Source of the DNA: Planctomycetota bacterium
GTDB lineage: Bacteria > Planctomycetota > UBA1135 > UBA2386
Assembly: GCA_947455805.1 (NCBI GenBank)
Contig: CANGSN010000002.1
Location: 1-45,437, forward strand
DNA: 45,437 bases
Direction of reading: 5' to 3'
A program made the translations under genes and the position numbers. Below the pieces are notes generated by a model. The model made no database searches. It saw only the letters and a program-made list of their open reading frames with translations, and was not told the DNA's origin. Below are positions 6,029-33,807 of the stretch, in pieces. Every line of letters starts with the position of its first letter. The first letter of the stretch is position 1.

Positions 6029-6997
6029 TCAGAACAGCGTGATGCGCAGGCCGTTCGAGAAGACGAACGGCAACGGGTCGGTGCTCCCGACGTCGAGCGC
6101 AGCGAACTGCGCGCCGACGACGACACCGATCATCGAGGGACCACCCGGCAGCGGCAGCGCCACCCACGCGTGGCCGCTGGCGCCGGCGGCGTGCGACGCC
6201 TGCTGGTTGCCGCTGCCGATGGCGACACCGACCAGCACCACGGGATCGACGTTCAGCTGGCAGCCGCTCGGCGCACCGGGCAGCGGGATGCCGACCCACG
6301 ATGGATCGACGCCGAACGCGACGAGCCCGAGGCCGCCGGGCGGCAAGCCGGTCGCTTCGAACCGGAAGTTCGCGTTGCCGATCGTCGGCGCGTGGTTGGT
6401 GAACACCGCCGGGAAGCTCGGCGTCGTGCTCGCGCAACCGAAGCCGATCGTGGTCACGCCCTGGCCGTCGAGCTGCGAGCAGTAGCCGCGCCACTTCAGC
6501 GGCTGCTGGGCCGCCTGCAGCACCCAGTTGCCGCCGACGAAGCGGGCGAACGCCGTGGTCGTGCCGCCGGGCTCGTACGGCAGGCGGTTCGAACCGCCTT
6601 CGCGCCAGACCAGCCAGTAGTTCGTGGCGCCCGTGAGCTGCACCAGCTGGTCGAAGTTGGCGCCGTGCCAGCCGAGCGACAGCGTCGCCTGCGTCTGCCA
6701 CGTGCCGCCACCGAGTCGCGCGTTCGGCAGGCCGTTCGCGCCTTCGTCCCAGATCTCGAGCGTCTGGTAGCCGGAGGACGACGCGAACGAGTTCGAGGTG
6801 AAGATCTCGGCCGCCATCAGCAGCTGGGACGACGCCGGCGTGACGCGGTAGGCGAAGGTGCTCGGACCGGCGAAGCTGGTCGCCGTGATGGCGGTGCCGA
6901 CGAGCGAGGTCGTGTCGTTGAGGGAGATGCAGGGAGTCTGCGCCGCGACGAACGTGGACGAGACGAACAACGCGCTGGCGAGCGAGCGAAGGAGCAT
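6029..6997 (-). CDS. secreted hypothetical protein carrying the shared C-terminal module
   Basis: From the internal ATG at 6997-6995, with a signal peptide (MLLRSLASALFVSSTFVAAQT). The last ~138 aa (GFGCAST...PSGCQLNVDP...FSNGLRITLF) match the C-termini of four other proteins in the window. Confidence 0.8.
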   Translation of the reverse strand: MLLRSLASALFVSSTFVAAQTPCISLNDTTSLVGTAITATSFAGPSTFAYRVTPASSQLLMAAEIFTSNSFASSSGYQTLEIWDEGANGLPNARLGGGTWQTQATLSLGWHGANFDQLVQLTGATNYWLVWREGGSNRLPYEPGGTTTAFARFVGGNWVLQAAQQPLKWRGYCSQLDGQGVTTIGFGCASTTPSFPAVFTNHAPTIGNANFRFEATGLPPGGLGLVAFGVDPSWVGIPLPGAPSGCQLNVDPVVLVGVAIGSGNQQASHAAGASGHAWVALPLPGGPSMIGVVVGAQFAALDVGSTDPLPFVFSNGLRITLF

Positions 6998-7446
6998 GGG
7001 GCCTCGAGGAGCGGGGATGGGACGGCCGACGAAGGGCCGCACGCTACCCGGAGCTGCGACGACCGCGATTCCCGAGGCGTCAGGGATCTGTCCCGGCGCG
7101 GGGCGCGCGCCGTTCCGGCCGCCGCGGGAACGCTTGCGCCAGGCGAAGTGCAGGTTCGGCAGCGTCTCGGGAACGTCCAGCGCCTGCACCCTACCTCCCC
7201 GTTCTCCACGCCCCGGCGACCGAACCGATCACCGGCCTGCGCGGCTCGACGCTGCGCGGCCTGACGCGCAGCATCACGCGCCACGCCATCGCCGACTTGA
7301 ACGGCGGCGAACTCGGCGCCGAAGCGGGCACCACGTCGCCGCCCGCCGCATGGTCGCGGCCCGCTACCGCTACGAGGGCACGGTGTCGCTCGGCCAGTCG
7401 ATGAAGATCGCGGCGGGGCAGCCCTGATCCGATGGGCTCGGATCGA

Positions 7447-9324: not shown

Positions 9325-10122
9325 CTACCGCGCCCCCGGAACGACGAACGAGCAACTCGCCCAGTAGCTCTCGTACTCGTGCGTCTCGACCTGCGGCCGC
9401 GTCATGTGCACCAGTCGCAGCGTCATCCAGCCGGGCTGTGCGATCGGCACGAGCGCCTCCCCTGCATCGTTGGTCCAAGTCGATCCCGCGATGTCCTCGC
9501 CGTTGCCCGGCAGGTCCCAGCCCAGCAGCGCACCCGCCAGTGGTTCGCCGGCGAACAGCACGAGCGTCCGCAAGGTGCGTCGCGGCTCGATCAGCGTCGG
9601 ATCCTCGAGCGGCACGATCTCCAGCGCCTGACCGACCGGTTCGGCGAAGCGACCTTTCCCGGCGCCCGTGCGGAACACGACCTTCGCGCACTTGCGGTAT
9701 CGCTCGGTCGCGTCGCGGCCTTCCTCGTGCGTATCCATGCGCGCTGCGAGCACCTTGGGCAGCCCTTCGTGCAGCAGGTAGTCGTTGAACTTGCGGGCGT
9801 CCAACGCGAGCAGCTGGGGCGCGGTGTCGCAGGTGGCGACGACCACTCCCGAAGACAGCGCCCCGAGATCGTGCGCGGTGGCCTTCGTGTCCGCATCGGC
9901 TCGAAAGCGCAGCAGCGCCTCCCGCGCCCCGTCGGGCCGCACGAGCCGCCCGGTCACGTTCGCGACGACGACGGCGTTGTCGCTCTCGGGAAAGGACATC
10001 CCAGTGCGCAGCGAGAGGCCGACGATCGCCCGATCGGCGCCCTCCACGGTCAGCAGCCAAGTCTCGTGTTTCGGCGAGCCGACGACGGCGACGACGAAGA
10101 TCGAGAGCGTGCGGCAGAGCAT
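9325..10122 (-). CDS. DUF4198-like periplasmic protein
   Basis: From the internal ATG at 10122-10120. A short signal sequence is followed by SPKHETWLL, the H-x-x-W start typical of mature DUF4198 proteins. It has beta-rich sequence and lies upstream of the sialidase-like gene on the same strand. Confidence 0.75.
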   Translation of the reverse strand: MLCRTLSIFVVAVVGSPKHETWLLTVEGADRAIVGLSLRTGMSFPESDNAVVVANVTGRLVRPDGAREALLRFRADADTKATAHDLGALSSGVVVATCDTAPQLLALDARKFNDYLLHEGLPKVLAARMDTHEEGRDATERYRKCAKVVFRTGAGKGRFAEPVGQALEIVPLEDPTLIEPRRTLRTLVLFAGEPLAGALLGWDLPGNGEDIAGSTWTNDAGEALVPIAQPGWMTLRLVHMTRPQVETHEYESYWASCSFVVPGAR

Positions 10123-10310
10123 GCTCGGGAAGGTGCGCGCGCAGGAATTCGTGTCGGCGAAACGCGCCCGAAGTCGCGAGGCTGCCCGACATGGGCGCGT
10201 CCGTGTGCACATCCCGATCGCTTCTGTCCCTCACCCACAGCGACCATGCAATCCGCTGCTGCTCGCTGCTCGCCGCGAAGTACTTGATCGGCCCTCACCT
10301 GACTGATCGG
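9965..10310. repeat. copy A of the duplicated DUF4198/DUF4394 junction (left flank of the insertion)
   Basis: Hand alignment with 13141-13500 gives long identical blocks (gacgatcgcccg, ggtcagcagccaagt, ttcggcgag, cgacgacggc, gtgcggc.gagcatgct, cccgaagtcgcgag, gcccgacatgg, gcgaccatgc.atcc, gctgctcgccgc, tgatcggcc). Several indels separate the blocks. Confidence 0.75.
10246..10287 (+). pseudogene. remnant of the 5' end of a DUF4394-type gene
   Basis: atgcaatcc...gctgctcgccgc...tgatcggcc aligns with the start of the intact gene at 13409 (atgcgatcc...gctgctcgccgc...ctgatcggcc). It has deletions and reads MQSAAARCSPRST before a stop. Confidence 0.5.
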
Positions 10311-10375
10311 ATCTCAAGATGCGCGCTGCATTCGGCACATGGACATAAAGTCTCTGTGCAAGTCTTGCGGCGACT

Positions 10376-12004
10376 TTAGTTGCTAGGCTCCAATATGAAC
10401 TTCATGGTACCAATCGATGAGATCACTCCGCCCGAGGTCGCGCTGGCGCTGCCGAGCCGAACTTGTAGCGGCCGGTAGCCGTCCGACTCCAAGGAGTACG
10501 ACTGCACCTCGCTTTCGAGCACCAATGTGATGCTGCCGGCCGAATCAAAGAATCCTGAGGCGACTACGGGATCACCGAGAGCAGGAGTTTCGACACGCAT
10601 GGTGTAACCGGTTACTGGCATGCCACAACTATCCTCCACGGACATGCGCACGGGTCGGCAGGGAAACTTCGACACCACTTCTACCATAGATCGCTGACCG
10701 GCTACAACATTCAATTGCAATGGCAACTGCAGACACTTTGCGGTGACCTCATCTGGCGACATCAAGATGTATTCACCATCGGGGACGCGAAGGCCGCTCG
10801 GGGACACGACCTTGGCGAAGCGAGGTTCGCCACGCCGAACTGCGATCAAATGTGGCATAAGTCCTGCATCGCAATCGACGCCGGTTAACAATAACTGGAC
10901 CTCCCCCGTTCGGTCTCCCCCACCCCCGGCAGAAATTCTGGTCGGAACAAGTCGCTCAAGCCGGCTAGCACTGAGCGTCGCACTGCCCCAGCCACCCTGG
11001 CGACAGTAGTAGTCCAAGCGAACAACCGGCTCACCAGCCCCCGCCGGCGGCGCGAACACGGCCACTATGGATTGGGGGTATCGCCTCCTTATTTCGTCAG
11101 CGTGGCGGCTGTAGGTCGACAGTGTTCGCCCAATGACCGCCGGCATAGACGTGTAGGTCCAAGTGTGGTAGAGAATCTCAGCGTCAAGTTCCACTGCTAC
11201 ACCGACAAGAGGCGCGAGAGTCACGTCAAGGGTGGTTGCCTCCCCAGCTCTGATGGTCATCAGCAGGCTTCTTGCATCGAACACCTCAACGCAACCATCG
11301 AGCCGCGCCTCAACGTGGTGGATACCAGGAAACAGAGCAGGAAACACCGCTTCGCCCTGAACACATGACGCCCACGCGGCCGCGCTCGGCGAGTCCAACA
11401 TCAGCCCCCCGATCCATTCTTCACGGGCGTTCAGAGAGCTAGTAGGTTGGCGTGACACGGTGACCGTGGCGCCGCGCGGCAACGAGCCATCTACCATTCG
11501 CACCTGCACATGCGCCGAGCCAGAACGAGTTGCGCGCAGCACGATGTCGCCAACTAGCGGCGACCACCTAGCCGGAGCAACCACATGCGATGACGCTTTG
11601 CCGACAACCCATTCTGGAGCCACAGCATCTGCATTGACTTCGATGGCCCCCTGAGCGTCACTCACCCCCATCCATCTGATGACGCTTGCAGCCATACACC
11701 GCTCAGTGATCGGCCCATTCAACGTCCCAATCTCGACCCCGGGAACGGCCTTGCCCTCCTCGTCACGAACCAAGATTCGAACGGCCTTCGTGGGGATCTC
11801 GCGGTTTAGAACTGCGTAATGATCGAGGGGGCGGAACTCGCCGGACTGCGGCATGGCCACTTCGGACCCCACGTACCTCGCCGCCGGTGCAGCCTCTTTG
11901 ATGGCCGGATCGGCAAGCTGTTGGTCGTAGCCCCAGCAGCTGATGCCCCACATGACGCCCACCAACGCCAACAAGAGCACAAACACGCGCATGACCGTAT
12001 TCAT
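10376..12004 (-). CDS. membrane-anchored protein with carboxypeptidase-regulatory-like (Ig-like) repeats, on the lower-GC insertion
   Basis: Start taken at the ATG at 12004-12002, which overlaps the upstream stop as ATGA. The N-terminal anchor is MNTVMRVFVLLLALVGVMWGISCW. Repeated segments have the form VRILVRDEEGKAVPGVEIGT, VQVRMVDGSLPRGATVTVS and VRMSVEDSCGMPVTGYTMRVET. Third-position GC is clearly lower than in flanking genes. Confidence 0.8.
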   Translation of the reverse strand: MNTVMRVFVLLLALVGVMWGISCWGYDQQLADPAIKEAAPAARYVGSEVAMPQSGEFRPLDHYAVLNREIPTKAVRILVRDEEGKAVPGVEIGTLNGPITERCMAASVIRWMGVSDAQGAIEVNADAVAPEWVVGKASSHVVAPARWSPLVGDIVLRATRSGSAHVQVRMVDGSLPRGATVTVSRQPTSSLNAREEWIGGLMLDSPSAAAWASCVQGEAVFPALFPGIHHVEARLDGCVEVFDARSLLMTIRAGEATTLDVTLAPLVGVAVELDAEILYHTWTYTSMPAVIGRTLSTYSRHADEIRRRYPQSIVAVFAPPAGAGEPVVRLDYYCRQGGWGSATLSASRLERLVPTRISAGGGGDRTGEVQLLLTGVDCDAGLMPHLIAVRRGEPRFAKVVSPSGLRVPDGEYILMSPDEVTAKCLQLPLQLNVVAGQRSMVEVVSKFPCRPVRMSVEDSCGMPVTGYTMRVETPALGDPVVASGFFDSAGSITLVLESEVQSYSLESDGYRPLQVRLGSASATSGGVISSIGTMKFILEPSN

Positions 12005-12462
12005 GGAATCTTGCAGGTACAGGCATCGGTCCACGCAAGACCCACCGGCAGTTGCTTGATGCACTTCTGGCTCGGTGGGGGCGTCGTGGCCGGACAGAGA
12101 TCGGGGTTGTCAATCCAGCACTCCCATGTAGGGTTTCGCCCTGCGCCATCCACACGCAGGGTGGCGTTGCAGGCCTTGGCAGCATCGACGTGGCCCGTAG
12201 GGTTGTTCGCCCGATTTGCGCAGACACACTTCCACTCAGTGAAGGTCGAGCCATCCGTCGTGGTCACAGTAGCGCAGAAGTTGTATGGAGCCGCGTAAGT
12301 GCTGCAATCACCGATACAAGATCCGATGTAGTAGCCACCCACGTGCTGTATCTGCAGCCTGCAGTCGCCCGCAGCCGGGACCAACAAGGACTTTGCACCG
12401 ATCATGGCTATCCCAGCGAAGACCAAGGAAATGGAACGCATGAAGATATCTGATTTGAGCAT
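12001..12462 (-). CDS. small secreted cysteine-rich protein (12 Cys)
   Basis: Signal peptide (MRSISLVFAGIAMIGAKSLL). The mature part of about 120 aa has 12 cysteines (GDC, GSCIGDC, NFC, WKCVC, KAC, WECW, DLC, QKC, DACTC). I recognise no family. The alternative start is the ATG at 12441. Confidence 0.75.
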   Translation of the reverse strand: MLKSDIFMRSISLVFAGIAMIGAKSLLVPAAGDCRLQIQHVGGYYIGSCIGDCSTYAAPYNFCATVTTTDGSTFTEWKCVCANRANNPTGHVDAAKACNATLRVDGAGRNPTWECWIDNPDLCPATTPPPSQKCIKQLPVGLAWTDACTCKIP

Positions 12463-12511
12463 GATTCGTTCGGGTTATCTGTAGATTCTTTAAGGGTTTA
12501 ATGAACCGACA

Positions 12512-12952
12512 TCAAGCTAGATTGTGCCTTGGCGTGCTTTGCCTGAATCGCATTGCCAGCGCGTAACTCGACCAACCGCCCAACAATCCCGCAGCAACGA
12601 GACGTTGCGCTTGACTCAGCTCATAGAGCCGCCCCAGGCAGCCACAGGGTTGGTCACCTGCCGCCAACCCTATCACGACGAAGCCGACAGCCAGTGCGAG
12701 GGTGGCCCAAAGCGCCACCCTCCAAAGAGACGTCAGCAACGTCACGCCGATCAGAGCTTCGAACAAGCAGACCACAGTCAAGGAAGCGCTCGAAATCAGA
12801 TCCGCACCAAGCGTCAACTTGGCGGTAGAGAGAAAGAGCAAGAGCACCGACAGACCTTGCCGATGCCTCAGAATGGCTCGTGACCGTCGCATGTCTTCCA
12901 TGACAGACTGATCGCCATCGAACAGGATGGCCTTCGACTTCGATCTCCGCAC
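12512..12952 (-). CDS. MauE/DoxX-like small integral membrane protein
   Basis: Four predicted TM helices, with a PCGCLG motif after helix 3 that resembles the CGCFG motif of MauE-family proteins. The start is ambiguous: GTG at 12952, ATG at 12901, or ATG at 12892. Confidence 0.65.
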   Translation of the reverse strand: MRRSKSKAILFDGDQSVMEDMRRSRAILRHRQGLSVLLLFLSTAKLTLGADLISSASLTVVCLFEALIGVTLLTSLWRVALWATLALAVGFVVIGLAAGDQPCGCLGRLYELSQAQRLVAAGLLGGWSSYALAMRFRQSTPRHNLA

Positions 12953-13301: not shown

Positions 13302-13500
13302 GCTGGGTCCGGTGCGCGGGCAAGCGGAACGAACCCGAAGTCGCGAGATAGCCCGACATGGTCGCGGTGGCCCGCACCTCCCGGTAGCTCCTCCAACCCG
13401 AAGCGACCATGCGATCCAAACTCCCCCACCTGCTCCTCCCGCTGCTCGCCGCCCCCGTCGCGGCGCAAAGCCTGATCGGCCTGTCGTCCGACAACCGCCT
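13141..13500. repeat. copy B of the duplicated DUF4198/DUF4394 junction (right flank of the insertion)
   Basis: See copy A. It holds the decayed DUF4198 5' end, the divergent intergenic region, and the intact start of the DUF4394 gene. Confidence 0.75.
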
Positions 13501-15334
13501 GATCCCGCTGCGCACCACGGCGCCGCTGGCCGCCGGTCCCACCGTCGCGATCACCGGCCTGCAACCGGGCGAGGCGATGCTGGCGATCGATTTCCGCCCC
13601 GCGAACGGCCGCCTCTACGGCTTCAGCTCGCAGGGCCGCCTCTACACGATCACCGCCGCGTCCGGCGCCGCGGCCGCCGTCGGTTCGCCGATCCCGATGC
13701 CCGCCGGCACCGAGTGCGGCTTCGACTTCAACCCGACCATCGACCGCATCCGCCTGGTCAGCGACGCCGGCGTCAACCTGGTGCTCAACCCGGACACCGG
13801 TGCTTTGCAGGCGACGCAGACGCCGCTGGCGTTCGCGGCGACCGATCCGAACGCGGGCTTCGCGCCGAACGTCGCCGCTTCCGCCTACACCAACAACGTC
13901 GCCACGGCGACGACGACGGTGCTCTACAACCTCGACGCCGCGCGCGACGTGCTGACGACGCAGATCCCGCCGGGTGCGGGCACGCAGAACACCGTCGGCA
14001 GCCTCGGCCGCGACGTCACCGCGGTCGCCGGCTTCGACATCGCAGCCAACGGCACCGCCTACACAGCACTCAACACGAACGGCGCCGCGAGCGGCACGAC
14101 GCAGCTGTTCACGGTGGATCTCTCGAACGGTTCGCTGACGTGGCTCGGCATCGTGCCGAACCCGAATCCGACGGCGCGCCTGCGCGGCCTCGCCGCCGTG
14201 CCGCCGGGCGCCGACGTCGAGGTCGTGGTGCTGACCGGCGACGGCCGCCTCGCGCGCTTCGACGCCACGTCGCCGTGGCAGGTGCCGACCGTCGCCAACG
14301 TGCAGGGCTTGCTCGCCAACGACAGCCTGGTCGCGATCGACTTCCGCCCGGCCACCGGCGAGCTCTACGGGCTCGGCGCGCTGGGCCAGCTCTACGTCGT
14401 CGACGCGCAGAGCGGGCAGGCGACGGCGATCGGCAGCGGCTTCGCCGCGGCGATGCAGGGCACGCGCTTCGGCTTCGACTTCAACCCGACCATCGACCGC
14501 ATCCGCCTCGTCAGCGACGCCGGCATCAACCTGGTGCTCAACCCGATCACCGGCGCGCTGCAGGCGACGCAGACGCCGCTGCAGTTCGCGGCGACCGACG
14601 TGCACGCGGGAACGATGCCGCAGGTGTTCGCCAGCGCCTACACGAACAACCTCGCCGGCGCGGTGACGACGGTGCTCTACGGCCTCGATGCGACGAACGA
14701 CGCGCTGGTCAGCCAGATCCCGCCGGGTGCCGGCACGCTGAACACGATCGGCAGCGGCCTCGGCTTCGACGTCGGCACCGTCGGTGGCTTCGACATCGGC
14801 GCCGACGGCATCGCCTACGCAGCGCTCGGCAGCAGCCCGCAGCAGTCGGTGCTGCACCGCATCGACCTGCAGCTCGGCACGTCGACCAACATCGTCGACC
14901 TGCGCGCAGCCCTCGGTGCCGCGGTCCTCGGTGTCGCCGTGCGCAACCCCGTCGGCATCGACGCCTTCGGCACCGCCACCAACGGCTGCGCCGGCCCCGC
15001 CTGGCTCGGCGCCGCCGGCACTCCGTTCGCCGGCAGCACGCAGTTCACCGTCGTCGCGCACAACGCGGCGCCGAACACGCTCGGCTTCTTCGTGCTGGCG
15101 GCGGACCGCCTGCCGATGGCGCTCGACATCGGCGGCCTGCAGGCGTGGATCGACCCGAACCAGCACGTCGTGGTGGCGATGCGCGCCCACGACGCCGCCG
15201 GCCGCGCGTCGCTGGTGATGCCGCTGGCCGGCGCCTGGTTCGGCCTGCCGACCTACTGGCAGTGGATCGGCCTCGACGTCTGCGGCCCGATGGGCCTCGC
15301 GACCTCGGCGGCGATGCGCGTCATCGTGCAGTGA
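13409..15334 (+). CDS. secreted protein with two tandem DUF4394 domains plus the shared C-terminal module
   Basis: Signal peptide (MRSKLPHLLLPLLAAPVAAQS). The pattern LAIDFRPANGRLYG...FGFDFNPTIDRIRLVSDAG.NLVLNP.TGAL occurs twice. The last 122 aa (TNGCAGP...AAMRVIVQ) are the shared module. Confidence 0.9.
   Translation: MRSKLPHLLLPLLAAPVAAQSLIGLSSDNRLIPLRTTAPLAAGPTVAITGLQPGEAMLAIDFRPANGRLYGFSSQGRLYTITAASGAAAAVGSPIPMPAGTECGFDFNPTIDRIRLVSDAGVNLVLNPDTGALQATQTPLAFAATDPNAGFAPNVAASAYTNNVATATTTVLYNLDAARDVLTTQIPPGAGTQNTVGSLGRDVTAVAGFDIAANGTAYTALNTNGAASGTTQLFTVDLSNGSLTWLGIVPNPNPTARLRGLAAVPPGADVEVVVLTGDGRLARFDATSPWQVPTVANVQGLLANDSLVAIDFRPATGELYGLGALGQLYVVDAQSGQATAIGSGFAAAMQGTRFGFDFNPTIDRIRLVSDAGINLVLNPITGALQATQTPLQFAATDVHAGTMPQVFASAYTNNLAGAVTTVLYGLDATNDALVSQIPPGAGTLNTIGSGLGFDVGTVGGFDIGADGIAYAALGSSPQQSVLHRIDLQLGTSTNIVDLRAALGAAVLGVAVRNPVGIDAFGTATNGCAGPAWLGAAGTPFAGSTQFTVVAHNAAPNTLGFFVLAADRLPMALDIGGLQAWIDPNQHVVVAMRAHDAAGRASLVMPLAGAWFGLPTYWQWIGLDVCGPMGLATSAAMRVIVQ
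13718..13858 (+). repeat. internal repeat unit 1 of the DUF4394 gene
   Basis: About 141 nt that are close to 90% identical by hand count to 14471-14611, at an offset of 753 nt (251 codons). Confidence 0.8.
14471..14611 (+). repeat. internal repeat unit 2 of the DUF4394 gene
   Basis: See 13718-13858. Confidence 0.8.
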
Positions 15335-15796: not shown

Positions 15797-15985
15797 TCAG
15801 CGCGAGCGCGCGACATGCTCCGCCCACCACGCCGGCAGCGACGGATTGAACCGCTGCCACGCGACGCCGTGGTAGTCCGCGCGCCGCAGCTGCACGCCGA
15901 CGAGGACCGCTGCCAGGAGCAGGCTGCCGACGACGAACCATGGCCACGTCGGCGGAGCGGCGCGGGCGCGGCAGCGAGCGCTCAG
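15797..15985 (-). CDS. possible small single-TM protein with a non-canonical (CTG) start
   Basis: A high-GC3 frame reads ...TWPWFVVGSLLLAAVLVGVQLRRADYHGVAWQRFNPSLPAWWAEHVARSR before a stop. There is no ATG/GTG/TTG before the helix. The CTG at 15985-15983 overlaps the TGA of the upstream gene (CTGA). It is not in the ORF track. Confidence 0.25.
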   Translation of the reverse strand: MSARCRARAAPPTWPWFVVGSLLLAAVLVGVQLRRADYHGVAWQRFNPSLPAWWAEHVARSR

Positions 15986-17163
15986 AGACCGAGAACGAGC
16001 GCCAGGCCGTTGCTCAGCTCGGCGAAGCCCAGGAACGGCCCGTTCGCGGCCAGCGCCAGGGTCTGCGCGGTCATCGAGAAGCCGGCGAGGGTGCCGTCAC
16101 CCGACACCGGCAACGTCGTCGACAACACGCCCGCGGCATCCGTGACACCGACGAAGCCGATGGCCGCCGACAACGGGTCGATCTGCAGCGTGCAGGCGCC
16201 GAGCGGCACCGGGACCGGCGAGCCAACCGACAAGCCGAGGACCACCGGCGCCTGCGCCGGCGCCCCGTTCGTGGTCAGCACGAGATTGCTGCCGAGCAGC
16301 GGAACGGTCGCCGCGAGCGTCGGCGGGGTCGCGCCACAGCCGACGCCGACCGACTGCACCGAGGCCTGCAGCGACGGGTAGGTGGTGCCGCTGCAGAAGG
16401 TCAACCCCGCACCGGGAGTCAGGCAGCGGAAGTCGAACAGGCTCTCGAGGTCGATCGCATAGCTCGCCGACGCGGGCGGCCCGTTGCGCACGCCGTACTC
16501 GTCGACGTTGCAGGTCATGCTGCCCTCCACGTAGAGCGTGGCACCGACCGTCGTCGGCACGAGGGCGCTGGTGAGGCCGGTCGTCGACGACAAGGACGCG
16601 ACGATCGTGTTGATGCCGAGCCCCGACGACGCCGGGTCGACGCGGATCTCGGCGCTGTAGTTCGAGACCAGCGGCAAGTTGCCGGTGAGCACGCACGAGC
16701 CGGACATGCGCACGCGGAGCAACAGCTGCACCGGCGTACCGACCGGCAGGCTCTGGCTCTGCACCGTCAGCGTGTCGCGGAAGCGCACGACCGGCAGGCC
16801 GAAGCCGGTTTGCAGGACGTAGAGCGAGGTGCCGTTGCCGTTCCAGTTCTGTGCCTGCCCGGCGCCCTGGATGCGCAGCCGGCCGAACTGCGCCTGGGTC
16901 TGCATCGTGCCTTGCGAGAAGAGGCTGACGCCGGGCGAACCGCCGCCGTTCTGCTGCATCGTGTTGACCGCCGACGACTGCCAGCCGGTGTCGACCTGGA
17001 CGATGTTCGAGGTCGCGGTCAGGTTGCCCATCTGGTAGGTCGAGCGCACGCTGCAGTTCTGGCTCTGCGCGGCAAGCGGCGATGCCAAGGTGAGCAGCAA
17101 GCCGAGCCGGGCGGCCAGGCGGCGGCAGGACAAGAACGTCGGAAGGTCGTTCGAGGTGTTCAC
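15982..17163 (-). CDS. secreted hypothetical protein carrying the shared C-terminal module
   Basis: Signal peptide (RLGLLLTLASPLAAQS). The body is Ser/Thr/Gly-rich and beta-like. The last 122 aa (GVGCGAT...LGACTLQIDP...LSNGLALVLGL) are the shared module. Confidence 0.8.
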   Translation of the reverse strand: MNTSNDLPTFLSCRRLAARLGLLLTLASPLAAQSQNCSVRSTYQMGNLTATSNIVQVDTGWQSSAVNTMQQNGGGSPGVSLFSQGTMQTQAQFGRLRIQGAGQAQNWNGNGTSLYVLQTGFGLPVVRFRDTLTVQSQSLPVGTPVQLLLRVRMSGSCVLTGNLPLVSNYSAEIRVDPASSGLGINTIVASLSSTTGLTSALVPTTVGATLYVEGSMTCNVDEYGVRNGPPASASYAIDLESLFDFRCLTPGAGLTFCSGTTYPSLQASVQSVGVGCGATPPTLAATVPLLGSNLVLTTNGAPAQAPVVLGLSVGSPVPVPLGACTLQIDPLSAAIGFVGVTDAAGVLSTTLPVSGDGTLAGFSMTAQTLALAANGPFLGFAELSNGLALVLGL

Positions 17164-24073: not shown

Positions 24074-24727
24074 ATGAACGCCCGGCTCGACCTGTTCGCC
24101 GCCCACGCCAAGCACCCGTGCCAATCCGGTCGGCCCACGAGCCGAATCCCGCAACCGCTCGTCCGCCCGACGCGCGAACAAGCCCACGAAGCCCTGCGCA
24201 CGCTGCTGGCCTGGATCGGCGAGGATCCGACCCGCGAAGGCCTGCGCGAGACGCCGGACCGCGTGCTGCGCGCCTACGGCGAATACTTCGGCGGCTATGG
24301 CCAGGACCCGACCGAGCTGCTGCAGAAGAGCTTCGAGGAGCTCGACGGCTACTCCGGCCCGGTCGTCGTGCGCGACATCGAGGTCCACTCGCACTGCGAG
24401 CACCACATGGTGCCGTTCACCGGCCGCGCCCACGTCGCCTACCTGCCGAACGCGCGCGTCGTCGGCCTCAGCAAGCTGGCACGCCTCGTCGACGCGTTCT
24501 CGCACCGCCTGCAGATCCAGGAGCGCCTGACCGCGCAGATCGCGAACGCCATCCACGACGCGCTGGCGCCGCGCGCGGTCGCGGTCGTCGTCGCTTGCGA
24601 GCACCAGTGCATGGCGACGCGCGGCGTGAAGAAGCGCGGCGCGATGACGCTGACCACGCAGTGCCTCGGCCTGTGGCAGGACGATGCAGCCGCGCGTGCC
24701 GAGATCCTGCGCCAGCTCGAAGACTGA
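24074..24727 (+). CDS. folE: GTP cyclohydrolase I
   Basis: The last 217 aa of track ORF 22949..24727, from the ATG at 24074. It has GEDPTREGLRETPDRV, SHCEHHMVPF, VGLSKLARLV, QIQERLT and CEHQCMATRGV, all conserved FolE type 1 blocks. Confidence 0.95.
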   Translation: MNARLDLFAAHAKHPCQSGRPTSRIPQPLVRPTREQAHEALRTLLAWIGEDPTREGLRETPDRVLRAYGEYFGGYGQDPTELLQKSFEELDGYSGPVVVRDIEVHSHCEHHMVPFTGRAHVAYLPNARVVGLSKLARLVDAFSHRLQIQERLTAQIANAIHDALAPRAVAVVVACEHQCMATRGVKKRGAMTLTTQCLGLWQDDAAARAEILRQLED

Positions 24728-24917
24728 GATCCGGCGGCGACGCGCCGGGTGCGGCGCTGTCGGCCGGGCGAATGCGGGGGCGCGCAGGGGATGGGGCGCC
24801 AGGACCAAGAAAGGGTGGATGCACGGCGACCTGCGCCCCGCTGGCAGGGAAGGTCTGGTAGCGTGTTGCCTCGGCCACAGGGCTCGTTCGCAACCCACCT
24901 CCTCCAAACCAAGCACC

Positions 24918-26870
24918 ATGACGCCACTCCGTCTCGTCTCCTTCGCACTGCTCGGTGCGACGCTCGCCGCCCAGCAGCAGGTGACCCTCCCCGACAATCA
25001 CTACTTCAGTGAGAGCAACCTGCAGCTCAACAATGTCGGCACCACCGCCTGGTGGCGCCCGACCGCCGGCCGCATGCAGATCCTCTACGAGGGCTCGAAC
25101 TTCACTGGCGTGACCGGGCCGATCTTCATCACGAAGATCAAGTTCCGCGGTGAGGACGGCGAGATCAACCTCGGCGGCCAGGTCTACACGGGCGTCAACG
25201 TCGCCGTCGGCTCGACCTCGGTGACCAACGCGACGATGACGAACACGTTCGCCAACAACCTGGCACCGACCCTGCCGGCGACCACGACGATGGGGACGAC
25301 GGTGACCACCAACGTCACGGTCGCGCCTTCGGTCGGCTCGATGCCGAACAACTGGAACATCGAGATCGACCTCGTGGCCCTCGGCGGCGCCATCGCGTTC
25401 GACCCGACCAGCAGCGAGCCGAACTTCCTGATCGACATCACGATGCCGAACGCGCCCAGCAATGCGGCGCCGCTGTCGCTGATCGCGATGGCGAACACGA
25501 CCGGCGGCTCGACGTTCATCCGCGGCGCCGGCGTGACGACGGCCACGCCAGGTTCTGCGACCGGAACGCTGAGCTCCATCCCGCTGATCGTCGGCGTCGA
25601 GTTCGCCGGCACCGGCGGCTTCAACCCGGTCGTCGTGGCCCGCAACGAAGTCTACGGCGGCGCCTGCGGCGGCTCGGCCTCGTCGTTCTACCAGGCGTTC
25701 CTGAACGGCCAGCAGTGGGACCTGAACAGCGGCCTGACGCTGACGCCGGACAATCCGACGGCGCCGACCTTCTACACGGTGTCGACCGGGGCTCCGGCCT
25801 TCGACGCGACCAAGGTGAACGCCACGGCCAACTCGATCGCCGACGACGCGCTGGTGACGCACGCACTGGGCTTCACGCACGCGTTCCCGGGCGGCTCGAC
25901 GAGCACGGTCGTCGCCAGCACCAACGGCTTCGTCTGGCTCGACCCGACGATGAACGACAACCAGTTCGCCGGCGTCGTCAGCCGCCTGCTCGGCGACCCG
26001 GTCACCGGCTCGACGGCGCCGATCGTGCAATACAGCGGTGGTCGCTACGCCCTGTATTGGCACGACCTGAACATGAGCAAGAACCTGACGCTGAACCCGC
26101 AGGCCGGCTTGCACGTGTTGACCGACACCAGCGGCGGCCCCGGCAACGCGGTCGCCTACGTGACCTGGCGCGACGTCGCCGAGTTCAACACGGTCGGTCC
26201 GTCGTCCGGCGTCACGCCGATCACCGGGCACACGATCTGGAACTTCCAGTGCGTGATCTACGAGGCGACCGGCGTCGTCGAGTTCCGTTACGGCAGCATG
26301 CCGCAGTTCACGACCTCCAGCGGTTCGACCCTCGGCCACCACGCGGCGATCGTCGGCTTCTCGCAGGGTCGCCTCGGCGGCCTCTCCGGCGTCAACTCGG
26401 TGGATCCGCAGTCGCGCGACCTGTCGATCGAGCCGGCGTTCACGACGTCGCCCGAAGGCTCGTTCGGCAACATCGGCCAGACCGCGGTGACCACGCCGGT
26501 GGCCGGCGGCGTCCAATACAACGGCCGCCTGTTCGCCGGCCAGACGGTGGCGTGGAACGCGAACAACGTCCCGCCCGGCTCGCTGCTCGGCGTGCAGTTC
26601 CTGGACATCGCGGCCGTTCGCCCCGGCATCCAGTTCCCGACGATCACGGCGCCGGGCTGCATGATCAGCCTGACGCCGACGGCGCTCGCCTGGGAGACGT
26701 TCGTGCTGCCGGGCGCGAATGTGACTGGTTCGGTGACGCTGACGATCCCGGCCGGTCTGGATGGTGTGGATCTGCACGCGCAGTTCCTGGTGCTCGACGG
26801 TCTGTTCGGCGGCCCGAACCTCGTCACCTCGTCGAGCAACGCCATCCGCCACACGATCGGTCAGAACTGA
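24918..26870 (+). CDS. secreted hypothetical protein (650 aa) carrying the shared C-terminal module
   Basis: From the internal ATG at 24918, with a signal peptide (MTPLRLVSFALLGATLAAQQQ). The body is Thr/Asn/Gly-rich and beta-like. The last ~135 aa (…APGCMISLTP…SSNAIRHTIGQN) align with the shared module. Confidence 0.82.
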   Translation: MTPLRLVSFALLGATLAAQQQVTLPDNHYFSESNLQLNNVGTTAWWRPTAGRMQILYEGSNFTGVTGPIFITKIKFRGEDGEINLGGQVYTGVNVAVGSTSVTNATMTNTFANNLAPTLPATTTMGTTVTTNVTVAPSVGSMPNNWNIEIDLVALGGAIAFDPTSSEPNFLIDITMPNAPSNAAPLSLIAMANTTGGSTFIRGAGVTTATPGSATGTLSSIPLIVGVEFAGTGGFNPVVVARNEVYGGACGGSASSFYQAFLNGQQWDLNSGLTLTPDNPTAPTFYTVSTGAPAFDATKVNATANSIADDALVTHALGFTHAFPGGSTSTVVASTNGFVWLDPTMNDNQFAGVVSRLLGDPVTGSTAPIVQYSGGRYALYWHDLNMSKNLTLNPQAGLHVLTDTSGGPGNAVAYVTWRDVAEFNTVGPSSGVTPITGHTIWNFQCVIYEATGVVEFRYGSMPQFTTSSGSTLGHHAAIVGFSQGRLGGLSGVNSVDPQSRDLSIEPAFTTSPEGSFGNIGQTAVTTPVAGGVQYNGRLFAGQTVAWNANNVPPGSLLGVQFLDIAAVRPGIQFPTITAPGCMISLTPTALAWETFVLPGANVTGSVTLTIPAGLDGVDLHAQFLVLDGLFGGPNLVTSSSNAIRHTIGQN

Positions 26871-26930: not shown

Positions 26931-26964
26931 AGCCGCAGGCGCAGGGCACGGTCGTGGCGCGCCT

Positions 26965-27678: not shown

Positions 27679-27688
27679 GCAGCAGCCT

Positions 27689-28135
27689 TCATAGCCCCTT
27701 GACGACCCGCACTGGGCTCGTCGAACCGTCCAGACAGAAGCTCACCACCATCCACATGCGATCGAACACGAACCCGCGCCTCTGCAGCCCCACGTAGTAG
27801 CCGAGCTCGGCTTCTTCGACCCGCGCTTCCGGCTCCGATTCGCCGAGCATCGCCACGATCTCGGCGCGCGTTCGCCCCTTCCACGACCCCACAGCCATCA
27901 TGCAATCCAGCATCGCGAAGCGAACGCCCTCAGCGACGCACGCCGGATCGCGCCAGCGCACAGGGTCGAAGTTGCACCCGGGGTAGACGATCGGCCTGAG
28001 CGCGCTGGCGACGATCACGAGCACGCAGAAGCCGGCGAGCCAGGCCAGGGAGCGCGGAATCGCGACTCCATCGGAGCGCAGCGCAGCTCGCAATCCCGCC
28101 GAAGCCGTCACGGCATCTGAGGCCCTGAGTCTCAT
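27689..28135 (-). CDS. membrane-anchored hypothetical protein (BamE/SmpA-like small domain?)
   Basis: One TM helix (LAWLAGFCVLVIVASAL). The segment WKGRTRAEIVAMLGE...LGYYVG...MVVSFCLDG resembles the SmpA/OmlA fold pattern. It lies 10 nt upstream of the SUKH gene. Confidence 0.6.
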   Translation of the reverse strand: MRLRASDAVTASAGLRAALRSDGVAIPRSLAWLAGFCVLVIVASALRPIVYPGCNFDPVRWRDPACVAEGVRFAMLDCMMAVGSWKGRTRAEIVAMLGESEPEARVEEAELGYYVGLQRRGFVFDRMWMVVSFCLDGSTSPVRVVKGL

Positions 28136-28161
28136 GGGAGCTCGTCGTTCCTACACCCGCC

Positions 28162-28848
28162 CTACAAGAGCTTGCTCCAGAACTCGATCGGCGGAATCGA
28201 GTCGGGCCACGTACGACGCCCTGGGAGTTCGAACTCATGGCGCAGGTAGTCCTCGAGATCGAAGCCGTAGTAGATGACGTCCGTCTGGTGCACGGAGAAC
28301 ACCGGGTTTCCCGCTCGATGGGGGCTGGCTGGGATCATTCGGTGCAAGAACACCGGAACGAGCTTCGGCGCAGCATCGAGGAACTTGGCCGCCACCAGCT
28401 TGGCCTCGGCGGCAGAGTCCGGACGCGTACCCCATTCCGCCATCCAGACCTCATTGTGCTCGACGTCGAACAGGACCCCTTCTTTCGGCCCGTCCATCCA
28501 AGATCTCAGCGAGCCGTCGACACCTGCCCGCCAGTCTGGGAAACCGTCGCCCTTCGGGAGCGCAGTCTGCAAGAACCTCCGCAGGTCTGGCGGGAACCTG
28601 AATCCGTACTTCCGCTCGATCTGAGCAACCTCCCGGTCCGTGAGCCCAGACTCGAACGTGACGACGAATGGCTTCGTCTCGGGCGTGACGATCCCGTGGT
28701 AGTACTCAGCGCCGGTCAACTCCGCGACGAGCTTGGTCCAGTCCATGGCTCCTGCCTCCGGTCCCTGGGACGCCCGGTGGACCGCGCATGACGCCATCAT
28801 GGCTGCACACGCAAGGCTGCCCAACATCTTGCTTCGGATCACCTGCAT
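28162..28848 (-). CDS. SMI1/KNR4 (SUKH)-like immunity-type protein
   Basis: LTDREVAQIERKYGFRFPPDLRRFLQTALP is a SUKH-type motif. The N-terminal MLGSLACAAMMASC could be a lipobox. The alternative cytoplasmic start is the ATG at 28746 (MDWTKLV...). Confidence 0.7.
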   Translation of the reverse strand: MQVIRSKMLGSLACAAMMASCAVHRASQGPEAGAMDWTKLVAELTGAEYYHGIVTPETKPFVVTFESGLTDREVAQIERKYGFRFPPDLRRFLQTALPKGDGFPDWRAGVDGSLRSWMDGPKEGVLFDVEHNEVWMAEWGTRPDSAAEAKLVAAKFLDAAPKLVPVFLHRMIPASPHRAGNPVFSVHQTDVIYYGFDLEDYLRHEFELPGRRTWPDSIPPIEFWSKLL

Positions 28849-28906
28849 CTTCGCACGTCGTGTTCACGCATCCGCCGCGAGCGGCGTTGCGGCGCTGGCC
28901 GGCTGC

Positions 28907-29305
28907 TCAGGTTGCGAACCGCCAGAAGCTGTCGTCTCTCCAGACACAAGCGACGAACCAGATCAGGTTGCCTGTGTCCAGCAGCAACAAGACGAGGCAC
29001 GCGATGCTCAGGCCAACGTTGGCAGGAGCGAGCAGAAGCCCTGCGACTACTGCCATGCCCACCAACGGAATGCCGGATACGTTGCGGTACCTGCCTCTTC
29101 GCCTCAGAAAGTGATACACGAGAGGGCGTAGGAAGGAGAGGTAGAAGTTGAGGACGCAGATCCACGCGCCCAGGCAGAAGACCGAGTAGGCAAGCACGGT
29201 GCACGAGCCGCCGAAAAGCCTCCGCTCGACGAAGATCGACCCAATCGGCACCGCAAGCAGCAAGAGGACTGCGATGACAGCGATGCTCTTCCGTACGACG
29301 ATCAT
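28907..29305 (-). CDS. small polytopic membrane protein (132 aa)
   Basis: From the internal ATG at 29305, with four hydrophobic helices (IAVIAVLLLLAVPIGSIF, CTVLAYSVFCLGAWICVL, IPLVGMAVVAGLLLA, LSIACLVLLLLD). I recognise no family. Confidence 0.6.
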   Translation of the reverse strand: MIVVRKSIAVIAVLLLLAVPIGSIFVERRLFGGSCTVLAYSVFCLGAWICVLNFYLSFLRPLVYHFLRRRGRYRNVSGIPLVGMAVVAGLLLAPANVGLSIACLVLLLLDTGNLIWFVACVWRDDSFWRFAT

Positions 29306-29384
29306 GCCCACCCGACTTCTTTGACCCTCAGCCGCGAGCGCTGCTGCGGCGCTCTCCGGCTTCAAGGTCGTGTTGGGCAGCAGT

Positions 29385-29852
29385 CTATCGTCCCCTGATC
29401 GTCCGATCGCGTGCACCCGACCAGGATCTGATGTGGAGGACGTTTCCCGGCTCCATGCCTCGCAGGTCCGGCTCCTCGGTCGCCGTCAGGATGCCGGAGC
29501 CGGACCACTTGCCGTCGCGTGTCCAGTCTCCGACGAGCGTCTCGTCGAGCATCAAGGAGCGAATGAAGCTGATCGGGTCGCTTTCGGGCCATGGAACCGG
29601 AACCGGCCAGTCGAAGTGCATGTGGAACATGCCAAAGCCCACGGTGATCTCCCCCCCATCGGTGGTGACCCAGAACTCGCAATCCTGTCGGACCGGTCCC
29701 GGCTCGAGGTGAATCAGCAGCAGACCATTCTCGGCGCGGGCGTGGTCGCGGAGGCTCGGAACGGCGGCGAAGAGCGCGTCAGCGAATGATCGTGAAAAGT
29801 CGTCAAGTCCGTCCATTGTCCGCAAACCTGCCTGCCCAACGTCTTTGCCCAT
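29385..29852 (-). CDS. hypothetical cytoplasmic protein (155 aa)
   Basis: Track ORF with balanced composition. Its ATG (29852-29850) overlaps the stop of the upstream gene as ATGA. I recognise no family. Confidence 0.6.
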   Translation of the reverse strand: MGKDVGQAGLRTMDGLDDFSRSFADALFAAVPSLRDHARAENGLLLIHLEPGPVRQDCEFWVTTDGGEITVGFGMFHMHFDWPVPVPWPESDPISFIRSLMLDETLVGDWTRDGKWSGSGILTATEEPDLRGMEPGNVLHIRSWSGARDRTIRGR

Positions 29853-30262
29853 CAGCCGCCGGCGCCGCTTGGGGCGCCGGCCGGCTGCTTGGGCTTGTTG
29901 GGCGGTGCTTGCCCCCTCCCCCGCAACACGAGGCGTAGAGCAACGGCGATGGCGACGGAGGGGATCGAGTAGATTGCGCCGTAAGCCCAGCCGAAGTACA
30001 GCGCGAAGGTCCGCTTGGCACCGTCGGCAAGAAGACGGTCGAGCACCTCCGGTGGCGGGTCTGGCTGATCAGCAAGGTCTGCCAAGTGCTCGAAGTAGAA
30101 GTAGACTGCGCCGTTTGCGAGTATCCACCCTACAAGTGAAGTCCACAGTGTGAGCAGCGCCCATGATGCCGTGGAGTGACGAAGGAGCCGGCGGGTGAAC
30201 ACAGCTGGCTGCAGCAGCAGGAATGCTGCGACGCAAGCGACACATGCACAGTGACTCCACAT
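29852..30262 (-). CDS. small polytopic membrane protein (136 aa)
   Basis: From the internal ATG at 30262 (MWSHCACVACVAAFLLLQ...), with 3-4 hydrophobic helices and a Pro/Gly-rich tail. It is the first gene of the six-gene minus-strand cluster. Confidence 0.6.
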   Translation of the reverse strand: MWSHCACVACVAAFLLLQPAVFTRRLLRHSTASWALLTLWTSLVGWILANGAVYFYFEHLADLADQPDPPPEVLDRLLADGAKRTFALYFGWAYGAIYSIPSVAIAVALRLVLRGRGQAPPNKPKQPAGAPSGAGG

Positions 30263-30585
30263 CCGCCCAACTCGTGTTCGAGGGAAGTGCCGAAAGCCGG
30301 CAGGCCTCGTTCCCCGCAGCCTATCGCCGCTCACCGACGCTGCAACCCGGCCGAGCACACCATCACCGGTCACCTGCACCGGCCTTCATGAGAAGTGCCT
30401 AACTCCGGAGCCGGGCAGGGCCCGAGCACCTCACGCGCGAACGAGTCTCCGCTCGCCCCTGAAGCCGCCAACCCCCGAGACGAGACCCGCGACCCAGCTC
30501 CCCACGCTCACGCCCCCTTCCCAAACGCCACCCACGCACTTCCCCGCACTTCCCCACCGCACCCTCCGCCGCACCGCCCCGCATC

Positions 30586-32350: not shown

Positions 32351-32352
32351 AC

Positions 32353-32384: not shown

Positions 32385-32457
32385 GCGAACGGGAATCACC
32401 GGTAGCATCCGCGGGCTCGGCGCCGGCTGTCGGCGCCTCCGAACCGGAGAAGCCCAC

Positions 32458-33807
32458 GTGATGCACCACCGCCTGCTCGTCTCGAGCCTCGTCGTCCACG
32501 CCGTTCTCGCCACCGTCGCCGCCCAGACCAACTGGACGCTGCGCACGCCGGCGACCTCGCCGCTGCCGTTCACCGCGCACGCGATGGCGTTCCACCTGCC
32601 GAGCGACCGCCACGTGCTGTTCGGCGGCATCACCGGTGGCGTGCGCTACGACCAGACGTGGCTCTACGACGGCACCACGTGGACGCAGGCGACGCCGACG
32701 ACCGTGCCGCCAGCGCGCGTCGCGCACGCGATGGCCTACGACCAGAACCGCGGCGTGCTGGTCATGTTCGGCGGCGTTCCAGCAGCCGGCGGCCTGATCG
32801 GCGACACCTGGGAATGGGACGGCGGCAACTGGACGCAGCGCACACCCACGAACGCGCCGAGCCCGCGCCGTTCGTTCCCGCTGGTGTTCCACCCCGGCCG
32901 CGGCACCACCGTGCTGTGGGGCGGCTACACCACCACCGACCTGAACGACATGTGGGAGTGGGACGGCACCAACTGGACGCAGATCACGCCGGCGAACAGT
33001 CCGTCGCCGCGGCGCGCCAGCGACATGGCCTACGACCCGACGACCGGCAACCTGATCCTGTTCAGCGGGTACCTGATGGGCGCCGACACCTGGTCGTTCG
33101 ACGGTGCCACCTGGACGCAGCTGTCGCCGGCCGTGTCGCCGTCGGCGCGCTTCGACCACTCGATGGTCACCGACACCGCGCGCGGCCGCATCGTGATGTT
33201 CGGCGGCCCGGGTGCGGCCGACCAATGGGAATGGAACGGCGCCGCCGGCACGTGGCTCCAGCGCACGCCGGCGACGCTGCCGTCGGCGCGCAGCGACACC
33301 TACCTGTCGTACGACCTGATCCGCGAGGAGATCCTGATGTTCGGCAGCGTCGCGGTGCCGGAGACGTGGCGCTACGCGCCGGTCGCCTCGGCGTTCTTCG
33401 CGACCTTCGGCAACGGCTGCGCCGGCACGCTCGGCCAGGCGCCGTCGCTGGTCAGCAGCGACCGGCCGTGGCTCGCGGAGACGTTCGAGATGGCGATCAC
33501 GCCGGTGCCGGCGAACACGATCGGCATCGTCGTCATGGGCCTCAGCAACACGTTCTCGGGGGCGGTGCCGCTGCCGGTGTCGCTGGCGGCGATCGGCATG
33601 CCGGGCTGCGACCTGCAGGTCGATCCAGTGCTGATCGGCGGCCTGCTGGCGACGGGCACGACGGCCAACTGGGCGCTGGCGATCCCGAACGATCCGGTGC
33701 TGCAAGGCGGCGACATCTACGTGCAAGGCGGCGCGTTCGACGCCGGCGCCAACGCCGCGGGGCTGATCGTCGCCAACCACGGCCAGCTGCGCATGGGCGG
33801 CAAGTGA
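32458..33807 (+). CDS. secreted Kelch-type beta-propeller protein plus the shared C-terminal module
   Basis: Signal peptide. Six repeats each carry (N/T)W(T/L)(L/Q)xxP plus P(S/P)(A/P)R and (M/L)FGG. The last 133 aa (FGNGCAGT...MPGCDLQVDP...) are the shared module. The start is GTG at 32458 or ATG at 32461. Confidence 0.88.
   Translation: MMHHRLLVSSLVVHAVLATVAAQTNWTLRTPATSPLPFTAHAMAFHLPSDRHVLFGGITGGVRYDQTWLYDGTTWTQATPTTVPPARVAHAMAYDQNRGVLVMFGGVPAAGGLIGDTWEWDGGNWTQRTPTNAPSPRRSFPLVFHPGRGTTVLWGGYTTTDLNDMWEWDGTNWTQITPANSPSPRRASDMAYDPTTGNLILFSGYLMGADTWSFDGATWTQLSPAVSPSARFDHSMVTDTARGRIVMFGGPGAADQWEWNGAAGTWLQRTPATLPSARSDTYLSYDLIREEILMFGSVAVPETWRYAPVASAFFATFGNGCAGTLGQAPSLVSSDRPWLAETFEMAITPVPANTIGIVVMGLSNTFSGAVPLPVSLAAIGMPGCDLQVDPVLIGGLLATGTTANWALAIPNDPVLQGGDIYVQGGAFDAGANAAGLIVANHGQLRMGGK

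Follow-up and report, generated by a model that had tools for sequence, protein, structure and literature searches.

A previously unmodelled C-terminal beta-sandwich module on diverse exported proteins of uncultured Planctomycetota and its possible role in sorting or anchoring

Background

Five exported proteins with unrelated N-terminal parts, all encoded in one 45,437-nt stretch of DNA from a Planctomycetota bacterium (assembly GCA_947455805.1, contig CANGSN010000002.1, positions 1 to 45,437; the whole stretch is called “the window” below), almost certainly end in domains of a single family that had not been modelled before. This domain, which we call “the module”, is a real and undescribed family that we have seen only in Planctomycetota. 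It is predicted to fold as an Ig-like beta-sandwich and stands, as a rule, at the very end of the chain. We tentatively regard a sorting or anchoring role as the best single explanation for it, a reading on which we ourselves are nearly evenly divided.

Little is understood of how Planctomycetota bring their very large set of exported proteins through the outer membrane or onto it. A module that may be present on 100 or more exported proteins of each genome would give a ready definition of a subset of the surfaceome or secretome. It could also serve as a handle in a search for a partner by phylogenetic profiling or co-folding.

Results

The five tails are homologous

The initial annotation of the window, made from the sequence alone, had proposed that the same module ends five proteins. 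Family members were gathered from public data, and the resulting module-only alignment (A3) contains 51 sequences, 46 from outside the window and the five from the window. Searches for homologues with the module profile had yielded only about ten short fragments each. A hidden Markov model (HMM) built from the 46 outside sequences matches all five tails among the 426 six-frame open reading frames (ORFs) of the window, with expectation values (E) from 2e-40 to 7.3e-7. The best of the remaining ORFs reaches only 0.18; therefore the window contains no sixth copy. The envelopes of this HMM are used as module boundaries (Table 1) and agree to about 6 aa with those proposed initially. The five ORFs and the motifs quoted for them are all present in the translations.

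Leave-one-out HMMs built from the window tails alone recovered three of the five (E 8e-9, 1.5e-5 and 1.1e-5). The DUF4394 tail (14966) and the tail of the 24684 gene (26463) were missed, so that the proposed construction of a model from the window C-termini worked for three copies, and the other two were connected only via external homologues. In profile-profile comparison, when each tail, together with its orthologues where available, was aligned by hhalign to the 46 outside sequences, the probabilities were 99.7, 98.8, 98.6, 98.2 and 94.6%.

We considered whether the tails could be non-homologous and resemble one another by composition or chance, as Gly-, Ala-, Pro- and Leu-rich ends of high-G+C genes might. 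Such a reading could appeal to the G+C content of the window (about 70%), to pairwise identities among the tails of only 22–31%, and to the lack of significance of some direct profile comparisons between pairs of tails; the one between the most divergent tails, DUF4394-type and 24684-type, gives 1.1%. The independent HMM, however, assigns the five tails E-values of 7e-7 or better, well apart from those of all 421 other ORFs of the same composition (best 0.18), the hhalign probabilities are those given above, the structural model obtained from the family alignment is confident, and both the order of the motifs and the position of the chain end are conserved. The independent HMM, the structural model and hhalign together rule out a chance resemblance, the probability of which we regard as negligible. 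The weakness of the direct comparison between the most divergent tails means that their homology is transitive, via the family core.

Table 1. Genes of the module-bearing proteins and module copies in the window
Feature	Positions	Strand	Evidence
Gene of an exported protein with a Pfam-less N-terminal domain of ~170 aa, and module	6029..7189	-	Translation
Module copy 1	6032-6460	-	E 1e-16 (independent HMM); hhalign 98.8%
Gene of an exported 2x DUF4394 protein, and module	13409..15334	+	DUF4394 E 9e-136, two stretches (Pfam)
Module copy 2 (DUF4394 protein)	14948-15331	+	E 1.7e-10; hhalign 98.6%
Gene of an exported protein with a Pfam-less N-terminal region of ~270 aa, and module	15982..17163	-	Translation
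Module copy 3	15985-16368	-	E 4.8e-16; hhalign 98.2%
Gene of an exported protein with a Pfam-less N-terminal region of ~520 aa, and module	24684..26870	+	Translation
Module copy 4, the most divergent	26454-26867	+	E 7.3e-7; hhalign 94.6% over 100 columns
Gene of an exported six-bladed Kelch propeller, and module; directly downstream of argS	32458..33807	+	Kelch Pfam hits, AF2 model
Module copy 5, the family-typical form (Kelch protein)	33388-33804	+	E 2e-40; hhalign 99.7%

Anatomy and predicted fold of the module

The module is about 128–143 aa long. Among 155 modules, the Cys of the G-x-G-C motif is conserved in 96%, the Cys of the P-G-C-x-L motif in 99%, and a Gln in the penultimate strand in 100%; several Pro and Gly positions are conserved in more than 90%, and the D-P-x-A-N-x-x-G loop and the S-N of the last strand in 67–85%. 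Thus the two conserved cysteines noticed in the window hold for the family. AlphaFold2 (AF2), run on A3 with the tail of the window Kelch protein as the target, predicts a 7–8-stranded Ig-like beta-sandwich with a mean predicted local distance difference test (pLDDT) of 96.8 and a predicted TM-score (pTM) of 0.87, i.e., the kind of fold that had been anticipated. The chain stops 2–3 residues after the last strand, with [ILV]-G-[GA]-[RK]-COOH as a typical ending. A disulfide probably links the N-terminal G-x-G-C segment with the P-G-C-x-L strand.

Copy 5 represents the usual form of the family, FGNGCAG ... IGMPGCDLQVDP ... IPNDPVLQG ... YVQGGAFDAGANAAG ... VANHGQLRMGGK-COOH. Copies 1 (GFGCAS ... 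PSGCQLNVDP ... AQFAALD ... FSNGLRITLF-COOH) and 3 (VGVGCGA ... LGACTLQIDP ... AQTLALA ... LSNGLALVLGL-COOH) have both cysteines. In copy 4 only the second Cys is present (APGCMISLTP), with FGNIGQT in place of the first motif; a homologous tail is found in the protein P0007. In copy 2 the first Cys is present (NGCAG), the canonical second one is replaced (GGLQAWIDP), and a relocated Cys lies in a DVCGP loop. The DUF4394 tail had been described as having no Cys at the second position. This is correct for the canonical site, which is mostly lost in the DUF4394 subfamily, but almost every one of the 26 full-length orthologues keeps a Cys in the D-x-C-G-P loop. Such a relocation is compatible with a structural disulfide in which one of the two cysteines has changed its place.

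Module and cargo diverge equally fast (e.g., 60% versus 61% identity), which indicates equal purifying selection on both. Only in the Kelch subfamily does the module conserve aromatic residues of the kind found on sugar-binding faces.

Position, cargo and distribution

The profile used in the exhaustive representative search unintentionally kept about 55 Kelch positions, and its 23,860 matches at E<=1e-3 are mixed with Kelch-only proteins and give no measure of family size. Of the best 150 matches 142 carry the module. In 149 of 150 module proteins, taken from these best matches and from earlier hits, the module ends no more than 5 residues from the C-terminus, and none has two copies. Counted over all 171 copies, the chain end lies between -5 and +1 residues from the model end in 170, and a tandem arrangement occurs in none.

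Loci of related genomes supplied an independent cargo sample, in which all copies are terminal. The cargo includes BNR (L012), FG-GAP (L010 and L020), Laminin_G_3 together with a Pfam-less domain (L081), a Pfam-less domain (L082), PPC repeats (L083, 4111-5814), and another Kelch protein (L086). A possible PETase-like hydrolase in L083 has a degenerate Cys-less copy, which is a weak match (E 2.6e-4). At least five Pfam-less N-terminal regions are found on the module. The N-termini of family members are Sec-type signal peptides, as read by eye. The module was therefore rightly said to recur at the end of diverse cargo: it is a family-wide terminal domain on unrelated proteins.

Not every exported protein carries the module. 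In L086 an exported module-less Kelch protein adjoins the module-bearing one, so the propeller fold does not depend on the module, and the BNR-GDSL, DUF4198 and thioredoxin-like proteins of the window are also without it.

All named module proteins come from metagenome-assembled genomes (MAGs) of uncultured Planctomycetota. The arginyl-tRNA synthetase (ArgRS) of the window is 65–91% identical to those of over 55 MAGs at the species level (some 62 loci), which with few exceptions are labelled Planctomycetota and were obtained from lakes, wastewater, soil and groundwater. Besides the five copies in the 45-kb window, there are five firm (and two weak) copies in about 131 kb of flanks of seven unrelated loci, and about 330 kb around argS contain seven. 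This gives approximately one module per 20–50 kb of the sampled DNA of the lineage and, by loose extrapolation, a number on the order of 100 per 7-Mb genome.

Comparison with known domains

No match to the 51 diverse modules was found in Pfam or in NCBIfam, and nothing in NCBIfam matched the five full proteins. The A3 profile has no match among PDB sequences even at E<=10. The precomputed Pfam annotations of family members cover cargo domains only. The comparison with Pfam and TIGRFAM sorting-domain models, suggested initially, thus gave no Pfam or NCBIfam model that covers the module, and it is outside all the known sorting families tested. A literature search for a C-terminal sorting domain in Planctomycetota returned no relevant description.

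In particular, the models of the C-terminal domains (CTDs) of the type IX secretion system (T9SS), namely TIGR04183 and PF18962 for type A and TIGR04131 for type B, gave no hit at E<=1 in the five proteins and the 51 modules. As a positive control in the same libraries, the DUF4394 protein P0259 matches PF18962 (2.4e-12) and TIGR04183 (2.2e-7). The module, like the T9SS CTD, is present in a single copy at the extreme C-terminus of unrelated cargo that is exported through Sec (as judged from signal peptides recognized by eye). T9SS CTD structures, which are about 70–100 aa long against 128–143 aa for the module, are not among the top 50 Foldseek hits in the PDB.

Foldseek with the module model found only generic Ig-like and E-set sandwiches in the PDB (NPC2/ML, complement MG domains, the Wzt carbohydrate-binding domain and SoxZ). 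The best match, NPC2, has E 6e-4 and a TM-score of 0.32, and the TM-score is 0.5 or less throughout. The module thus matches no characterised binding domain in Pfam, NCBIfam or PDB sequences. Known carbohydrate-binding modules (CBMs) were rejected as candidates on the same grounds, with no specific family indicated by Foldseek.

Three more candidates were rejected. The PPC domain (PF04151) matches none of the modules; PPC-like repeats occur only as the N-terminal cargo in L083. The GO-like E-set domain (PF09118) has no Pfam match, and AA5 oxidases align to the full-length Kelch model only at a root-mean-square deviation of 13–15.6 A; consequently, the galactose-oxidase architecture is not shared. 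PEP-CTERM and other tripartite CTERM signals gave no NCBIfam CTERM hit, and the module has no hydrophobic helix, its tails ending in [ILV]-G-x-[RK] or similarly. The analogy with PEP-CTERM drawn in the initial annotation was wrong in kind, as the module is a folded domain of about 130 aa and not a short motif with a transmembrane helix.

Other ends on the same DUF4394 cargo

At E<=1e-10 there are 4,843 homologues of the 2x DUF4394 region encoded in the window, and we compared the C-terminal ends of the best 120. The module is at the exact C-terminus of 27 of these, most of which are 641–648 aa long with cargo 45–91% identical. At the end of P0259 there is a genuine T9SS type A CTD (792-861 of 870; PF18962 and TIGR04183), P0276 ends in 3x CWB2, and P0211, P0214 and P0226 end in a hydrophobic helix plus RRK. 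Other homologues have a different Cys-rich domain, FG-GAP repeats or a third DUF4394 repeat at the end. Since homologous cargo bears a T9SS CTD, CWB2 or a helix plus RRK there, the slot of the module is filled elsewhere by secretion or anchoring devices.

Several of these ends are recurrent in their own right. Homologues with 3x DUF4394 from other lineages have a common Cys-rich C-terminal segment of about 90 aa (...KCGRGGFLFTGKGDTNR...TINDRDTTNNTCRCR-COOH), which is found in P0222, P0225, P0232, P0249, P0255, P0264, P0274, P0275, P0277, P0278 and P0282. It has no match in our local Pfam and NCBIfam, and the precomputed annotation assigns PF28505 to P0264. This end may be another lineage-specific terminal module on DUF4394 cargo. 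Two short tails also recur: [LF]-L-P-[LMVI]-[VI]-x-[KR] in P0183, P0223, P0224, P0245, P0247 and P0268, and ...F-x-D-G-F-E in P0229, P0252, P0253, P0266, P0273 and P0291. None of the three recurrent short tails, the helix plus RRK included, matches NCBIfam CTERM models at E<=0.1. Some of the short tails could be contig truncations.

Module-bearing genes and their surroundings

Pfam finds 2x DUF4394 in the protein of the 13409 gene, a Kelch propeller in that of the 32458 gene and nothing in the N-terminal regions of the other three, just as had been read from the sequence; these three regions also have no match among PDB sequences. All five proteins begin with a basic and hydrophobic stretch that ends in AAQ and was read by eye as a Sec signal peptide. 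In the 6029 gene, a Met at 6997 (MLLRSLASALFVSSTFVAAQ) inside the listed ORF can serve as the start according to the translation, and is probably the true one; in the 24684 gene the true start is probably an internal Met at 24918 (MTPLRLVSFALLGATLAAQ). A 386-aa gene is called in place of the 6029 ORF on the same contig in L079, and its homologue P0002 is 60% identical. The 15982 ORF is called as a 393-aa gene in both L079 and L080. Exact copies of the 13409 gene are present on ENA contigs, and the Kelch-plus-module gene has a syntenic orthologue in L001. For the full-length Kelch protein with its module, AF2 gives a pLDDT of 95.7 and a pTM of 0.90; the best Foldseek hits of this model are bare six-bladed Kelch domains (LZTR1 and KLHDC2).

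The end of the signal peptide is very uniform in the exported proteins of the lineage, whether they bear the module or not. It has the form A-x-A-Q (AAQ, LAQ or PAQ), and ends of this type are seen at 6997, 13409, 17163, 24918 and 32461 of the window and in the N-termini of the family.

In four genomes the DUF4394-plus-module gene adjoins, divergently, a pair formed by a planctomycete-type extracytoplasmic function (ECF) sigma factor (PF07638) and a Ser/Thr kinase of about 1075–1090 aa. The sigma genes of the pair are L083:9044-9661, L086:9231-9848, L088:9251-9859 and L089:3480-4094, and the window DUF4394 copy has no such neighbour. The arrangement suggests conserved regulation.

The gene content of the window is that of an ordinary chromosome and includes TetR, SDR, a thioredoxin-like protein, ABC-F, ArgRS, an ECF sigma factor and a leucine-rich repeat (LRR) protein. 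The G+C content drops from about 0.70 to 0.61–0.64 at about 10000–14000 and 26900–30400. These stretches hold Pfam-less ORFs (10376-12064) and a SUKH-1/SMI1-like immunity-type protein (28162-28848), and they may be horizontally acquired islets. One more exported protein, of about 1089 aa (19556-22825, forward strand), is Pfam-less and without the module; it is called as a 1067-aa gene on L079 and L080. A 1137-aa ORF (33847-37260, reverse strand) begins with ECF sigma-70 regions 2 and 4 and continues with a long CarboxypepD_reg-like repeat-rich region; it is adjoined by an 805-aa LRR protein (37273-39690, reverse strand). The fusion of a sigma factor to a large repeat region of extracytoplasmic type is unusual, and the ORF may be mis-joined, with the sigma gene read through into its neighbour.

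Discussion

What the module may do

We favour, tentatively, a role in sorting or anchoring because the module combines a strictly terminal position, a fixed chain end, a single copy per protein, diverse cargo, a high number of paralogues and positional equivalence with known tags. The route would be as follows. The proteins would cross the inner membrane via Sec, with signal peptides ending in A-x-A-Q, and the module would fold and become oxidised in the periplasm. A lineage-specific partner, which could be a translocon of the outer membrane or a receptor in the envelope or at the surface, would then recognise the folded C-terminal domain and deliver or hold the ligand-binding heads at the envelope or the surface. 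The heads would include the Kelch, BNR, FG-GAP, DUF4394, LamG and PPC repeat parts described above and at least one hydrolase.

A more far-reaching version seems to us rather unlikely. In it, the module would mark cargo for a still undiscovered pathway of outer-membrane secretion or surface attachment in a large lineage of uncultured Planctomycetota. This pathway would be an independently evolved functional analogue of the Bacteroidota T9SS and would recognise a folded, disulfide-stapled C-terminal sandwich on about 100 or more proteins per genome.

Several observations weigh against sorting or anchoring. No recurrent machinery gene was found beside the module genes in the loci of related genomes; neighbourhoods differ between genera, and a conserved operon was accordingly rejected as a candidate. 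The initial suggestion of a sorting, anchoring or secretion tag is supported by position, fixed end, single copy, cargo diversity, paralogue number and equivalence of the slot, but the export or attachment machinery that it implied was not identified. No T9SS-like system is known in Planctomycetota. The junction between cargo and module has neither a low-complexity linker nor an obvious cleavage motif. In the AF2 model of the Kelch protein the module appears rigidly packed on the propeller, because a pTM of 0.90 is hard to reach without a confident arrangement of the two domains; this suggests an integral accessory domain more than a tethered tag. One protein, P0120 (1332 aa), has the module inside the chain (990-1136), after Kelch repeats and before two CARDB-like domains, and could be either a genuine rearrangement or an artefact of assembly or gene fusion. 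Finally, the Kelch columns in the search profile bias the sample of the best 150 matches to Kelch cargo.

According to the main alternative, the module has no sorting role and is just an accessory domain of Ig-like or E-set type that serves as a rigid stalk, in oligomerisation or in binding of ligands or carbohydrates. We consider this a serious rival, if on the whole doubtful. The fold is a generic beta-sandwich, the weak best matches of which include the ML/NPC2 lipid-binding fold, the Wzt carbohydrate-binding domain, complement MG and Ig domains; packing and the lack of a linker are as expected; and many cargos are binding propellers or lectin-like domains, which often bear accessory sandwiches. 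Yet accessory domains and CBMs are usually tandem and variable in place, whereas the module is never tandem and lies at the exact C-terminus in 170 of 171 copies. Nor does any known CBM or E-set model match it, the aromatics of a sugar-binding face are confined to the Kelch subfamily, and exported Kelch propellers without the module exist in the same genome. In other lineages, the same cargo ends at this place in genuine modules for sorting or anchoring.

The strictly C-terminal location on Sec-exported proteins and the putative disulfide-stapled fold, suitable for the periplasm, would also agree with a pro-domain or intramolecular chaperone similar to the PPC or P-domains of proteases, which aids folding or inhibits and is later removed, with no addressing function. 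We find this very unlikely: most cargo domains serve in binding and not in catalysis and do not obviously require an inhibitor or help in folding, neither PPC nor any other pro-domain matches the module, the junction lacks a conserved cleavage motif, and the protein in L083 carries its PPC-like repeats N-terminally, as cargo.

The consequences differ accordingly. Should the partner required by a sorting role be a translocon, a folded C-terminal domain would be known to direct secretion in two independent cases. If the module is only a structural or ligand-binding sandwich, it adds one more domain of unknown function, a routine result. A new Pfam or NCBIfam model built from it would annotate thousands of hypothetical proteins from metagenomes.

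Comparison with known systems

Galactose and glyoxal oxidases have, as domain 3 (PF09118), a beta-sandwich right after a Kelch propeller, and a similar rigid packing is predicted here. Unlike in these enzymes, the propeller of the window protein is six-bladed, and the module also follows DUF4394, BNR, FG-GAP, LamG, PPC and Pfam-less domains. PEP-CTERM and related tripartite signals (substrates of exosortase, sortase and rhombosortase) are likewise C-terminal elements on many exported proteins of one lineage, and the helix plus RRK at the end of the DUF4394 homologues P0211, P0214 and P0226 is broadly of their kind. They are about 25–35 aa long, with a short motif that is followed by a transmembrane helix and then by a basic cluster, whereas the module is a globular beta domain of about 130 aa.

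Dockerin is a mostly C-terminal, single-copy module on diverse secreted cargo that it addresses to cohesin. It is a Ca-binding duplicated helical module of about 70 aa, in contrast to the predicted all-beta module; dockerin (PF00404) matches none of the 51 modules, and no cohesin-like partner was identified. CWB2 (PF04122) and SLH are also recurrent modules of the C-terminal end. They hold diverse extracellular proteins on the cell envelope, and CWB2 fills the same place on the homologous DUF4394 protein P0276. These domains, however, usually form three tandem repeats that bind a secondary cell-wall polymer in monoderms, while the module is single and belongs to a diderm phylum; its fold is different, with no match in sequence or structure.

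The T9SS CTD is similar in the largest number of respects. The module is predicted to be, as the T9SS CTD is, a folded Ig-like beta-sandwich, and both stand at the extreme C-terminus, one per protein, on many Sec-exported proteins with unrelated N-terminal cargo; both (the module by extrapolation) are present in tens to hundreds of copies per genome, with very divergent paralogues within a genome; and on the DUF4394 homologue P0259 a genuine type A CTD occupies the equivalent position. The differences are that the module matches neither the type A nor the type B model in sequence, that it is larger (about 130 against 70–100 aa) and contains two conserved cysteines and a Gln that does not vary, and that it has no linker and is apparently packed on its cargo in the AF2 Kelch model. 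By analogy, the module seems to resemble functionally the T9SS CTD or a cell-wall-binding module, with homology to them indicated by none of the tests run.

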